Virus record (IMG/VR): IMGVR_UViG_646311923_000012
From: a virus
Lineage: Duplodnaviria; Heunggongvirae; Uroviricota; Caudoviricetes
DNA: 64,000 nt
Reading direction: 5' to 3' (one strand)
Shown: in pieces, positions 42,001 to 48,000 of the stretch
Layout: every line of letters starts with the position of its first letter
Numbering within the stretch: the first letter of the stretch is position 1
Made by a program: the position numbers

Positions 42001-45000
42001 TGAACACCCCGGCGGGCGGTTCATTCGACTGGGTGGTCGTATACACCACAAACCCTTCCGGACGGGAGGCAAGCCCGCCGATGGCTTCACGTAGCATGTC
42101 TTCCGCCTTGTACTGCTTGCCAAACAGCCACAGTTCATCAATCAGTGTCCCCACGGACTTGATACCGGACACCGTATTCGGATCGGCTGCCACCACCTTC
42201 AGGGTGGTGTCCGTCACCCGATGGGTGATGGTCCGGATATGGGTCTGCACCTGACAGAGGTCATCCAGATCATCGTCCCGTCGTACCATATCCCTGGCAG
42301 GGTTGAAGGCGTTAGCCGCCACCTCCACGGTCGGGGCCAGAATGGTGTAGCCCGCCGCCTGCCGCCAGTTCAGTAACAGCGCCGTCATCATGATCCCCGC
42401 AGCCAGCGTGGACTTCGAGTTTTTCTTGGGGATAAGGATAAACACTTCCTTGATATGGCGAACACCGGTCTGCGCATCGTAGGAGCCAAACAGGGCCGCC
42501 ACCAGGTCAAACACCCACGGTGCACAGGACTCCCCGAATGTCGGGCTACCCGGTGCATCCACAATTCGCAGTTGTTTAAAAATCGCCAGTGCATGTGCAG
42601 CCTGGTCCGGATAAATCGGAGCCGGAATAATCGACAGCCCCTTTTTCAGGCGCTCTGCCCAGTCCGGGCAGGCCGTGCTCCACACAGGTATCATCCGTTG
42701 CCCTCATTATCATTATTCACCACCAGGCGGGGTGGTGGTGGCACCGCAAAACGGTTAGCCGCTTTTTTCGCCGCGTCACCTTTTGCCGATTTTTTACCGG
42801 CATCCCCTTTTTTATGGTGCGTGAACTGCGCCAGCTTATAAGCCGCATCCAGCGCCAGCCTGGGGTCGGTATTAATGTTCTCCACCAGAAGACGCCCCAT
42901 CGCTTTCACCGGATCGGGAAGACCATCCTCCATATATTCAATACCAGGAGACATCACCGCGGACGGTGGCATCTCCGGATTGTTTTCGTCCGGCTGTGGT
43001 ATTGCAGCCGCCTCACGGCGACGGGGTTTATCCTCCTGCTCTGATTTTTTCTGCCGGTAAACAGGAACCTCATCCACCTCCACCGTCTCGCATTGTTTAC
43101 GGGCTATAAACGCAAGCACCTCCGGATCTTTTGCCAGCTGCGAGCCTTTAACCCTGGCGGTCTTCGCCGAATAACCAGCGGCAATGGCTGACGCTGTTTT
43201 GTTTTTCCCGGACATGAGCGCCAGCGCAAATTTTCGTTTTTGCGTTGTCAGCACAGCCTCCTCCCGGGTCCAGAACGCACTCAGCCGGGTATGGTTCAGC
43301 CCATTTTTCCCGGCGTCTCATGCCGCAAATGTTAACTGCTGCCTGGTTAACATTTGCTGAAAAAGCCAGTTAACATTTTTTCCGCACAACAAACTGAATA
43401 ATAAAGATAAAAACCGCAAAAATGCCCGGACAGCCAGTTAACATGTTAACTGCCCTGAAACGGGAATTTTTTCTCTGCGTGAGAGGGGGGGCGGTGTCCG
43501 GGGCGATCGTTTTTTTCGCCGGATGATCCCCCCCCGGGGCGGGTCACAGTCCGATGATATCGTCTGCCCTGCCATGACCTCCGGACACCTCCGGCAGCGT
43601 CGGGTCTGGCATACCACTCGCCGCTTCACGAGCAGACTTTTGTCGATGGCATTCGGTACAGAGCGTCCAGAGATTCGTCTCCTCATTACCACCACCGAAC
43701 TGAAGTGCAATTCGGTGATCGAGTTCACTGTCACAGAGGTCAACCACACGACCACAGAGACAGCACTGCCCGGCATCCCTGAGCCAGATATGACGCTTGA
43801 GGGAAACACGTGCACTGCCACTGACACGACGCTGTTCACCCTTCAGAATATTCACCCGCCGGGTGTTCAGAGTTTTGATTCTGCCCGGTAACGTACGAAG
43901 CACAGCCATGTAAAATCCTCGCCATATAGCTTGTCACCAGAGGAAAGAAAATGTCATCGAAAAACCGGCCCCGCAGAACAACAACCCGCAACATCCGATT
44001 TCCAAACCAGATGATTGAACAAATTAACATCGCTCTTGACCAGAAAGGTTCAGAAAATTTTTCAGCGTGGGTTATTGAAGCCTGCAGAAGAAGATTAATT
44101 AATGAAAAATATTCTCAATTTGTACCCAACAAAGACAAACACGACCAGAGAACCTGTTCAGACAGGTTTACTTAAACGACTTATATATGACACAAAAAGC
44201 GACCACTAAAGTCGCTTTTTCTTATGGTAACAGGCAATAACGCTCTCAGATATTTTTTAGCATTTTTTTGACCGCGCGTTTCCGGACGTATTCTGTTCTC
44301 CTGTCCCTTTATATCGTCGGAATACCCGCCGCTCTTCAAATCCCATTCCCAACTCAGAATGTAGTCTGTTGACCGCTTGTTTTATTTCGGTCAGGTTCAC
44401 CGGTGAAACCGGAGTCCGGCGCGCCTTACGCAAACACTCTGCTCGTTTCTGTGCCGCCACTTTTCTTTTCTGGTCATCACTTAGCTGTACCATCACTTTT
44501 GCCCATCGTTCAGCTGCTCTCCGGTACAGTCCTTTTTTCTCCAGACATTCTGCCAGGTGATCATGTAGCATAAGTAACCTCCGTTTATCTACAGACTGCC
44601 ATCCTGAATTTACCGTCCTTAATAAGACAACAATAAAAAACTAATTATATAAAAACAATAAAAATAATATACAAAAAAACTAAACAACAAAGAAAAGCAA
44701 ATCATATCTGGCATTTTAATTGAAAGAGCAATTACCGAACAAAAGACGCTGACTATATACTCAAAACCAAACAACAATTCTGCCAATCAGGTATCATGGC
44801 AACACACGGAATTACCATGTTTTTGCCTTCTCTGCCCATACAATACGGGCATATACTTCATACTCTATTGTAATATTTCTATCCATGCGCCCCACTCCAT
44901 TTACCTGTAAATAATATTCAAAATATTTATCACAGAAATCGTTTTTGGCCATGAACTGAGCACACTATAAAGTCCGGAACTGACTCTTTGTTAAATTACC

Positions 45001-48000
45001 TTAACGTTACCAGTAACACCTTCATAACAAAACATCACGGTATACACTGGGTACGGATATATTCCTGTGCTCCTTCCAGTTGCTTCTGCATTGCCATCAG
45101 CCGTTCTCTGAGGATGAAATAATCCCGTTCAGCGGCTTCTGCCAGTCGGGGACCGGTTGCATTATCCACGCCGGAGGTGATGGGGGCTTTACGCAAGGAG
45201 CCTGGACAGTTGGCGTTGATGCGCAGGCGCTTACGACCAGCGGCAACATCAGCACGCAGAGTTTCATTTTCAGCTCTCGCATCGGCTAATTCCCTCGAGT
45301 ATCTGGCATCAAGTGCAGCGACATCACGCTGGCGCTGCTGCATATCAGTAATGGTTGCATTTGCCAGCTCCAGCTCACTGACTTTTTTATCGCGCTGCTC
45401 TTTGTAGGTTATGGCGTTATCGCGGTAATGATTCAGCCCCAGACTAAGTGCACCACAGGCTACCAGCAGGACAATAATCACCACACACAGAACACGGTTC
45501 ATCTCTCTTTCACCCCACCAGTCCCGATAACGTCAGGACTCGCCAAGCGGTGGAAAAGAAAATGGCAACCAGAATGACTAAAAATGAAATGCCGACGATT
45601 ACACAGAGGATCTTCGCCAGCGTTATGAGTTTATCCGATATCATTAGCCACCACTCCATCAATCCGCCTTTGTTATTTTCCCTTTGTCTGTATCAGCCAG
45701 GACAAAATCAATCAGCAGATTCGCTTCGTTTATCAATGTGCGGATTTTTGATACATGCGCGGATTTAACCTGTTTCCACTCATTCAGCCCGGTAGCAAAC
45801 ACACTGGCAATGTTTTTATCCCGTTTCATGTCAGCGCAAGCCTGATTGAGTTCTTCCATCACACTCATTCGACGGGGATTAACGACAAAACCCTTCGTCC
45901 AGTATTCATAGAGAACATCGTCACACTCTTCCTGATACTGGATTACCTTGCCGCGGATTTCGGGTTTTACTTTGTTGGGATTGATGGTTTGTAACCAGCC
46001 TGCAAGTTTTCGAAGCGGCAGGGACACCATATTGCGTCGTTTCCCATCCTCAGCAACCATAACGATTTCCGTTATAGTTGACGCAAAACGCTGTCTTAAC
46101 TTAGCCAACTGTGATTGCCAGGCCAGCCCCATCCCCGCAACGACAGGTTTCATGGGAACGTATGGTTCGCCGTTATGGTTAACTACATAAAGAGAGTTGC
46201 CGTGAAACGGCACGGTCATCATATTCATCGGTTATTTCCTTTTAGTGATGAACCCTGCGCACAGGAATAACCAGCCCAAAGAGGGTTAACCAGACCACTG
46301 CCGGTTATCCACCAGGGCTCATCCTGAAAGGTTCTTTGGTTTATTTACGCTTGTGCGAAGCGCAGAAATGACAAAGGCACCATTACGGTGCCTCTTCATG
46401 AAACAATCTTGTTGACTTTATTCACTTACATTTTGCCAGTTCGCAGGATTTCGTGTTGTCTACCCGCGTTGGCCAACGTCATTTTTCAGCAAAATATTCT
46501 GCTTACCTGTCGATACCCCAGCATGCCAGCGCACTCTCCTGGTCACGTCTTGATACCTGACCGTAACAGTTGTTTGAACGGATACGGCAGTCTCTGCCAC
46601 CGTCCTTAATCCACCAGCGAATCGCCTCACACGCTCCCCTGCGATCGCCTGCATTAAGCCGCTTATAAAACGTCGACGGGAAACACTTACCGGGGCCAAT
46701 GTTATAGGGGCAAAATGACGCGATACCTGCTTTTTGTGGCTCGGTCAGTGGAACTTTTATATTACGCTCCCCCCATGCCAGCGCCTTATCCCGTTCGATA
46801 GCGTTAACCCGGTCGCATTTTTCCTTCGACAGCTTCATGCCAGGAATCACAGGCTTACCATCCACCATGATGGCGCCTCGGCAGATGGTCCAGATACCCG
46901 CACCATCACGGTATGCCGTGGTGTGGTTGCCTTCCTTTTCATCCAGAAACTGGTCGAGGATTTCAGGCGCAGAAGCACCTGCGGCAATCAGCGCCAGAAC
47001 GGCAGCCGATAAACCATAGCGGAGTTTCCTGCTCATCAGCTTACTCTCCCCGTGCCGCCTTACGCCTGTCCTCTCTGATTTTGAAATACAGGTTCGTCAG
47101 GTACGTCAGCAGACCAAACAGCAGACTCCCCAGCACGCCTATTGCCGCCCACTGAGACGGGGAAACCCTGTCCAGCAACTGCAGGAACCAGTAGCCCGTT
47201 CCCACCGCTGACGTGGTGTATGACACACCTGTTGTGATTTTTTCCATCTGGTTCATACCCCGCCTCCCGCAATCCGGAAGCTCACAACAATAAAAAAGAC
47301 CACCGGCACACACCGATGGTCCCTGACGCATGCTTACATCATCATGTCGCTGTCCGGTGTGGGGTCACCGCTATCTGAAGCACTCCCCTCACCCGCGATG
47401 CCTTCCGGCTCCGGAGCTGCCGGTGCGCCCAGCAGTTCATCCAGAATGGCATCCACTTCTGCATCAAGACGCGCTTCCAGGTTATGGCGAAGTTTCTGTT
47501 TCAGTGCGCTCCGGACTTCTTCAGAGCGCAGGACTTCCTTCACTGCTTCAGCAGTGACCAGGGATGTAATTTCTGACATGGGATTTTCTCGTCGAAAGGT
47601 GTGATTAAGAAAGTTGCCGCTAAATGAGCGGCTCTTCGGGTTTGCTTCCGGCTGACTGACCGGCGCTGATTTTCTCAGCGGCCCTTTTGTCAATCTGCCT
47701 GCGCCAGCAATCGCGCACTGCCCTGTACCCACCCGAAAGGAGATACAGCACACAGACCACCGTACAGAAGTACAGCATTAACTGGTTCAGAAATGTCATA
47801 ATTTCTTTCCGTTATTGTTGACAATAAGAACTGTTTTCATTAAAAACCAGAGTACGAAAGTATCGTTCCTTTATTTTTTCTCCATAGGTATCACCACCGC
47901 CAGCGTCCATTCCTGTCGCTGGCGGTTTTTTTTATCATGCCGCAGTGTCTGTGCTGTTCACTTCCACCGCAATGCTGTCTATCAGTACCGGGTAAGTCGC

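Follow-up and report, generated by a model that had tools for sequence, protein, structure and literature searches.

The window analysed here is the whole 64,000-nucleotide (nt) stretch of DNA from the Caudoviricetes record IMGVR_UViG_646311923_000012 (IMG/VR), and the gene in question, pch, is a short open reading frame (ORF) that occurs in the gene order S-R-ant-Rz-pch-DUF3950-HNH-terminase-head-tail of a lambdoid prophage. Upstream of the pch cassette, Rz is the last of the lysis genes and has Rz1 embedded in it (45097..45282), while on the other side pch converges on a DUF3950 gene, beyond which lie an HNH endonuclease gene and the two terminase genes (Table 1). An earlier reading of this DNA, made from the sequence alone (the sequence-only reading), had reported a 104-amino-acid (aa) ORF with a PerC motif between the HNH/terminase block and Rz. 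The ORF was upheld to its exact coordinates, with a full-length match to the Pfam PerC family, and its placement was correct except that the convergent DUF3950 ORF separating pch from HNH had been overlooked. We consider it very likely that the gene is a pchB-type group 1 pch, carried on a moron of ~0.96 kb between Rz and the DUF3950/HNH/terminase genes of a lambdoid prophage that bears espK and is not a Shiga toxin (Stx) phage.

Assignment of pch to the PerC family

The predicted product comprises 104 aa plus a stop codon, starts at an ATG, opens with MLHDHLAECLEKKGLYRRAAERW and carries the PerC signature LEKKGLYRRAAERW at residues 10–23. It scored 148.8 bits with the PF06069 (PerC) profile (gathering cutoff, 22.6; E = 5.4e-44), residues 1–89 aligning to profile positions 1–89 of 90, and the PerC-family similarity on which the sequence-only reading hinged is therefore present. 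RefSeq lists an identical protein (WP_001302717.1) from O157:H7 and O103:H2 genomes as a 'PerC family transcriptional regulator' and gives this name to near-identical matches in O26:H11 and O45:H2 strains as well. Alignment to PerC and Pch proteins, which had been suggested as a check on the ORF, gave 41 of 87 identical residues (47%, E = 1e-27) for PerC of enteropathogenic Escherichia coli (EPEC; pMAR7, the gene after perA and perB) and complete identity, with no differences (100%), for PchB of E. coli O157:H7 Sakai (ECs_2182, prophage Sp11). PchA (ECs_1091, Sp4) and PchC (ECs_2737, Sp14) each stand one residue away, by L6V and V58M, respectively.

In an alignment of 47–48 diverse family members, the signature reads LExxGLYRRAAxRW, with R17, A19, A20 and W23 invariant and with A7, L10, E11, G14, R18, R22 and C46 conserved in at least 90% of the sequences. 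All of these residues are present in the pch product, which likewise shows the pattern by which we defined membership, A..LE..G(L/F)(Y/W)RRAA.RW together with a conserved cysteine around position 46. The PerC family is small, since an exhaustive HMMER search returned 84 cluster representatives at E ≤ 0.001 among 1.84 billion, and a word-indexed protein search with the pch product retrieved close relatives only. A match to the ANR (AraC negative regulator) family of NCBIfam (E = 0.046, far under the cutoff) was discarded as noise. By its sequence, the pch ORF is unambiguously a member of the PerC family. It also has the attributes of a group 1 Pch (PchA, PchB and PchC, also called 'PerC1'), namely a length of 104 aa, near-identity to three Sakai loci, residence in a lambdoid prophage and a position downstream of the lysis genes.

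The sequence-only reading had further proposed that a Pch-like protein would connect this prophage to regulation of chromosomal virulence loci such as the LEE (the enterocyte effacement locus). Because the product is PchB residue for residue and only a single substitution from PchA and PchC, that connection is established biology; the protein is one whose role at the LEE is published, and the activation itself is taken from that literature.

Composition and zonation of the upstream region

Between pch and Rz lie 463 bp (44572..45034) with a guanine-plus-cytosine (GC) content of 33.0%, compared to 51.2% for the whole window, and just 1% of the 463-bp intervals in the window are as AT-rich. GC content was 28% over positions 44600–44799 in the promoter-proximal part, where one 50-nt block reached 92% A+T, and 30–44% per 50-nt block in the distal part of the gap. 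The ~460 bp of extremely AT-rich DNA described in the sequence-only reading is thus borne out in length and overall composition, although 'extremely' fits the promoter-proximal part only. Its description as non-coding essentially holds. A 46-aa ORF (44812..44952) was rejected as a gene, as it has no Shine-Dalgarno (SD) sequence, shows three non-synonymous changes to one synonymous change and has no Pfam or NCBIfam match; among the inspected genomes, a single one has it annotated in RefSeq (hypothetical protein), and it is probably non-coding. An upstream ORF of 55 aa was also rejected, because it starts with TTG, would yield a hydrophobic, low-complexity peptide from a T-rich tract and has no match in Pfam or NCBIfam.

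Alignment of alleles divides the region into a conserved leader, an allele-variable segment and a distal segment. Nearly all differences between pchA, pchB and pchC, including insertions and deletions, are confined to the promoter-proximal AT-rich segment, which we infer to be the seat of paralog-specific control and possibly of H-NS silencing. H-NS silencing of the AT-rich upstream region, as the sequence-only reading had envisaged, is plausible in view of its base composition (33% versus 51% GC, within the lowest 1% of intervals). The nucleation motif used for scanning was TCGATAAATT-like. Two loose matches to it, each with two mismatches, occurred in the 463 bp compared to ~0.5 expected from its density in the window (73 per 64 kb), and none came closer to the motif. 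Our literature search found no report of H-NS binding at pch promoters.

The distal segment is near-invariant (alleles are 89–100% identical overall) even where the proximal segment has diverged by insertions and deletions, and as RNA it folded better than 200 of 200 shuffled sequences (z = −2.95). These ~290 bp may be a structured RNA or a regulatory element accompanying all group 1 pch genes. A stronger version, in which the invariant segment is itself the functional element, acting as a structured RNA or long 5′ untranslated region or encoding the 46-aa peptide, draws on the same near-invariance and fold and on the annotation of the ORF in at least one RefSeq genome. We judge it unlikely, given that no Rfam family matched the pch upstream region (whole window at the gathering score, and 43900–45200 at E ≤ 1), that the sequences vary too little for covariation to be assessed, that the ORF has neither an SD sequence nor a coding pattern of substitution, and that the conservation may merely reflect recent spread of the cassette.

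Extent and distribution of the pch cassette

The boundaries of the cassette were located by comparison to the Stx1 phage BP-4795, which has the same TerL-TerS-HNH-DUF3950 … Rz-Ant-R backbone without pch. Homology to BP-4795 stops at 44085/44086, in the 3′ third of the DUF3950 gene, and restarts at 45045, in the 3′ end of Rz, such that the 3′ third of the DUF3950 gene falls within the cassette; in BP-4795, 465 bp of unrelated sequence occupies the corresponding place. Because the cassette is missing from this otherwise collinear phage, it behaves, on comparative grounds, as a phage moron. In Sakai Sp11 and Sp14, homology runs from 43951 through Rz and ends at 43951, where different packaging genes adjoin the module. 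pch is directly downstream of Rz/Rz1 in both of these prophages and also in Sp4, where the segment has been rearranged by insertion sequence (IS) elements.

On the side facing the DUF3950 gene, a hairpin with an A-tract and a U-tract had folding energies of −17.3 kcal/mol (z = −2.5) and −12.3 kcal/mol (z = −2.5) on the two strands and was invariant in all alleles. It was missed by a simple terminator scan and recovered by folding, and from its sequence it looks like a bidirectional terminator serving both pch and the DUF3950 gene.

We found the 778-bp block delimited in the sequence-only reading, which joins the ORF to its upstream region, in 672 of 5426 complete E. coli genomes, at 1–5 copies per genome (median 3). 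These genomes are overwhelmingly of the enterohaemorrhagic E. coli (EHEC) or atypical EPEC type (O157:H7, O55:H7, O26, O103, O111, O121, O145 and O45). The distal 245 bp of the upstream region occurred in the same 672 genomes and nowhere else (1872 places versus 1879 for the full block), and the upstream region is therefore integral to the cassette. Fifteen of the 1879 matched places were on plasmid-labelled records, at least one of which (EDL933, 287 kb) looks like a chromosome fragment. A conjugative IncF espP plasmid carries a cassette of the pchA allele and an Rz1 remnant, flanked by IS3 copies (NZ_CP144931.1, 19288–20315), which indicates that the cassette can exit prophages via IS-mediated rearrangement.

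Position and orientation agree with the earlier placement of pch in the late operon, but the gene belongs to a self-contained cassette that has its own upstream region and terminator and is lacking in an otherwise collinear phage. This distinction bears on whether pch could primarily be a phage late gene, transcribed by Q-dependent read-through from pR′ in lytic growth only and serving the phage. Such a role would fit the shared orientation with the lysis and packaging genes, the position directly after Rz, the lack of a detected consensus promoter upstream of pch and the published rise in group 1 pch transcripts upon SOS or prophage induction (PMC6265319). Yet the cassette is entirely missing from a phage of the same backbone, which implies that phage growth does not need it, the 463-bp upstream region always accompanies the gene, and a terminator follows it. 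In addition, LEE expression depends on pch in uninduced cultures, and host regulators act on pchA and pchB (PMC4764244, PMC4456613, PMC10714755). We therefore regard a primarily lytic function as very improbable.

Comparison with known Pch and PerC loci

The closest known counterpart is the PchB locus of Sp11, which matches the window at 99.8% identity across an 865-nt unit that takes in upstream region, coding sequence and terminator. There, too, the gene lies directly after Rz/Rz1 in a lambdoid prophage and is followed by a DUF3950-type ORF, whereas the terminase pair differs (the packaging module in the window is HK97-like, with HNH and terminase) and the cargo is an nleG cluster rather than espK. 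The PchA and PchC loci have the same distal upstream region, leader, SD sequence and terminator as the window, with identities over the 865-nt unit of 94.5% and 93.4%, respectively, and with insertions and deletions in the promoter-proximal segment. Differential regulation of pchA and pchB by LrhA is indicated by the title of Honda 2009, as listed in PMC4456613.

An inactive or divergent PerC homologue of the PchD/PchE ('PerC2/PerC3') kind, with targets such as curli or flagella instead of LEE1, would be in keeping with the several PerC homologues of differing activity that EHEC genomes hold (PMC6265319, PMC4332760, PMC7369912) and with the more distant PerC-family proteins found in E. coli (78%, and ≤52% identity), but this reading is ruled out by the sequence identity to PchB and one-residue distance from PchA and PchC, with the group 1 length and prophage position also contradicting it, and it retains next to no probability.

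EPEC PerC shares with Pch the Pfam family, the N-terminal signature and 47% identity over residues 2–88, and each activates the LEE1 promoter (PMC4332760, PMC4764244). PerC is an 89-aa, plasmid-borne protein encoded by the third gene of an operon under the AraC-type regulator PerA, whereas Pch is encoded on a stand-alone prophage cassette and ends in a basic C-terminal tail of 15 residues. LEE expression is more strictly Pch-dependent in EHEC than it is PerC-dependent in EPEC (PMC4764244).

The cassette resembles other lambdoid morons at the lysis/cos junction in its low GC content, in having a regulatory region and a terminator of its own, and in its place between Rz and the packaging genes. 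The bor gene of lambda is a comparable moron. The pch cargo differs from morons of the bor type in that it regulates a chromosomal pathogenicity island and is not a surface or serum-resistance protein.

Candidate translational control by DicF

Published work indicates that the small RNA (sRNA) DicF promotes pchA translation at low oxygen by pairing inside the pchA coding sequence, which relieves an SD/anti-SD interaction (PMC7769764, PMC7873438, PMC13138055). A DicF gene is present in the neighbouring prophage of the window, in the context ydfA-ydfB-...-dicB. This copy and pch are ~33 kb apart, in tandem prophages.

We used sliding-window RNAduplex to predict pairing sites in the pch mRNA, and the best of these, for the 5′ end of DicF at +81 to +104, had an energy of −26.7 kcal/mol and was identical in the pchA and pchB alleles, which suggests that DicF may pair with pch mRNA at this position. 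The codon change underlying L6V (C/G at +16, window position 44556) lies inside a second candidate site at +11 to +38, which scored −24.9 kcal/mol in pchA and was not among the eight best-scoring sites listed for the window allele. Substitutions close to the SD sequence, at −13 and −5, also differ between pch alleles. Since both the +11 to +38 site and the SD-proximal bases vary, translational control may be allele-specific.

A model for Pch action at LEE1

Group 1 pch genes are required for full expression of ler and the LEE and for adherence (Iyoda & Watanabe 2004, as cited in PMC6265319 and PMC4456613). PerC homologues fall into groups 1–3, and it is group 1 that ler, espA and adherence need (PMC6265319). 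PchA activates the LEE1 promoter only under H-NS/StpA silencing with Hha, and it lowers and remodels H-NS occupancy at LEE1 and effector loci; PchA had no detectable interaction with H-NS, and the authors call the molecular mechanism unsolved (PMC4764244). Reported inputs to pch expression are LrhA, Lrp/butyrate with LeuO, and NtrC/sigma-S (PMC4456613, PMC4332760, PMC10714755).

In a model built on these studies, the lysogen would express Pch from a promoter region belonging to the gene itself, with LrhA, Lrp/butyrate and sigma-S/NtrC as host inputs. Control of pchA by ppGpp/DksA is also said to have been described, by Nakanishi in 2006. Translation of pchA mRNA would be held off by an SD/anti-SD structure, and DicF would lift this block at low oxygen. 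Pch, which published work places at the promoter region of LEE1 (ler) and at further virulence loci, would there remodel the nucleoprotein complex of H-NS, StpA and Hha, after which ler would be transcribed and Ler would switch on the remaining LEE as well as prophage-borne effectors. On induction, Q-antiterminated late transcription could enter pch, because the gene has the orientation of the late operon and lies directly after Rz, and such read-through would explain the reported SOS effect.

Nothing contradicts the identification of the gene, but several observations limit parts of this model. A standard-stringency consensus scan of 44100–45100 found no promoter or terminator, such that no sigma-70 consensus promoter passes in the 463 bp, and a relaxed scan of the upstream region gave weak candidates only. 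The lone good −10 element, a perfect TATAAT at 44644–44649 (−78 to −73), is paired with a poor −35 and is present in the pchB allele only, being missing from pchA and pchC. In RNAfold predictions, the SD sequence paired with +24 to +29 at a probability of 0.2 in the pchB allele versus ~0.6–0.66 at most SD positions in pchA, and, given this weaker pairing, the mechanism published for pchA may not carry over to pchB in quantitative terms. The LEE is not in the window, and the presence of this target in the host is deduced from espK and the matching EHEC genomes.

Lastly, the predicted Pch fold has no recognised DNA-binding motif, and direct sequence-specific DNA binding by Pch is for that reason an assumption. 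The AlphaFold model is an all-helical four-helix bundle with a pLDDT above 85 for residues 1–75; a comparison of this model with solved folds gave no significant match, and it weakly resembles protein-interaction hairpins of the TPR/MIT type. Judging from the model, PerC/Pch proteins might not be conventional DNA-binding factors at all but adaptors on a protein or nucleoprotein filament that displace H-NS/StpA/Hha at LEE1, an idea that we entertain tentatively and consider rather unlikely.

Prophage context and feature coordinates

The prophage carrying pch spans ~17–64 kb of the window, is lambdoid and has its best match in an O103:H2 genome at 99.4%. No stx gene is present, including between the transfer RNA (tRNA) genes and the esterase gene. 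The type III effector gene espK (17103–18464, +) lies beside the tail-fibre genes, and an IS66-family element with ISCro1-like tnpA/tnpB/transposase genes (19226–21841, −) sits in a tail-fibre gene. This insertion probably leaves the prophage defective.

A gene at 51231–51944 (−), just upstream of a tRNA trio, encodes a 237-aa AraC-family helix-turn-helix protein, in the slot that Sakai ECs_1087 ('AraC-family transcriptional regulator') occupies. Prophage AraC regulators of this slot (Psr/PatE type) presumably act on GAD acid resistance and, indirectly, on the LEE. ARAGORN called the trio Arg-Arg-Met(CAT), and the gene with the CAT anticodon is annotated as tRNA-Ile in matching RefSeq genomes. 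The trio is followed by TerB and nanS-p-like genes, and between the nanS-p-like esterase and TerB-family genes in the late region is a match to the sRNA family STnc100 (50009–50181, −; Rfam, 104.7 bits).

Positions 1–16291 belong to a second lambdoid prophage, similar to Sakai Sp4, and comprise its early region, with Q, RusA, DUF968, hokD/sok (sok at 2872–3046), alpha/beta hydrolase, replication and relBE genes, in addition to ydfA-ydfB-DicF-dicB, an exonuclease gene and an integrase gene (15272..16291). The integrase end of this prophage adjoins the espK/tail-fibre end of the pch prophage. Because Sakai Sp4 carries pchA, another copy of pch may sit just beyond the window's left edge.

Table 1 Features of the pch locus and related elements, in window coordinates.
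Feature	Position	Strand	Basis
pch coding sequence, pchB-type allele of the group 1 PerC homologues	44257..44571	−	ORF listing, Pfam, RefSeq, comparison with Sakai
SD sequence GGAGG, 6 nt 5′ of the ATG	44578..44582	−	Read from the sequence; kept in all aligned alleles
Conserved leader with SD sequence (44 nt, −44 to −1)	44572..44615	−	Allele alignment; pchA, pchB, pchC and more distant alleles differ little here
Promoter-proximal AT-rich, allele-variable segment (−174 to −45)	44616..44745	−	Allele alignment
Distal upstream segment (−463 to −175, ~290 bp)	44746..45034	−	Allele alignment, co-occurrence across genomes
Best predicted DicF pairing site in pch mRNA (+81 to +104 of the coding sequence)	44468..44491	−	Sliding-window RNAduplex
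Bidirectional intrinsic-terminator-like hairpin, AAAAAGCGAC...GTCGCTTTTT	44194..44220	both	Between the convergent pch and DUF3950 genes
pch cassette (moron), full extent	44086..45044	−	959 bp, 38.6% GC; breakpoints relative to BP-4795
Rz spanin	45035..45502	−	Pfam Phage_lysis, 158 bits; annotated as lysis protein / Rz1 lipoprotein
DUF3950 / YlcI-YnfO family gene, convergent with pch	43951..44175	+	Pfam DUF3950, 68.5 bits; NCBIfam YlcI_YnfO_N; RefSeq
HNH endonuclease, downstream of pch	43544..43909		
Small terminase subunit, downstream of pch	42691..43254		
Large terminase subunit, downstream of pch	41033..42694		
DicF sRNA gene, neighbouring prophage	11806..11857	+	Rfam RF00039, 77 bits versus a cutoff of 48

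Significance

The gene, its paralogs, their prophage location, their targets and several of their regulators are already published, and the locus holds no new biology. What the present analysis adds is modest, namely the boundaries of the cassette together with its empty site, a map of allelic variation in the upstream region and a DicF copy ~33 kb away. In practice, recognising the pchB copy helps with annotation and with tallying the dosage of pch. Pch proteins act as master activators of type III secretion and attachment in EHEC, and the pchB copy described here ties an espK-bearing prophage to the LEE regulatory network and marks its host as being of the EHEC, or attaching-effacing, type.

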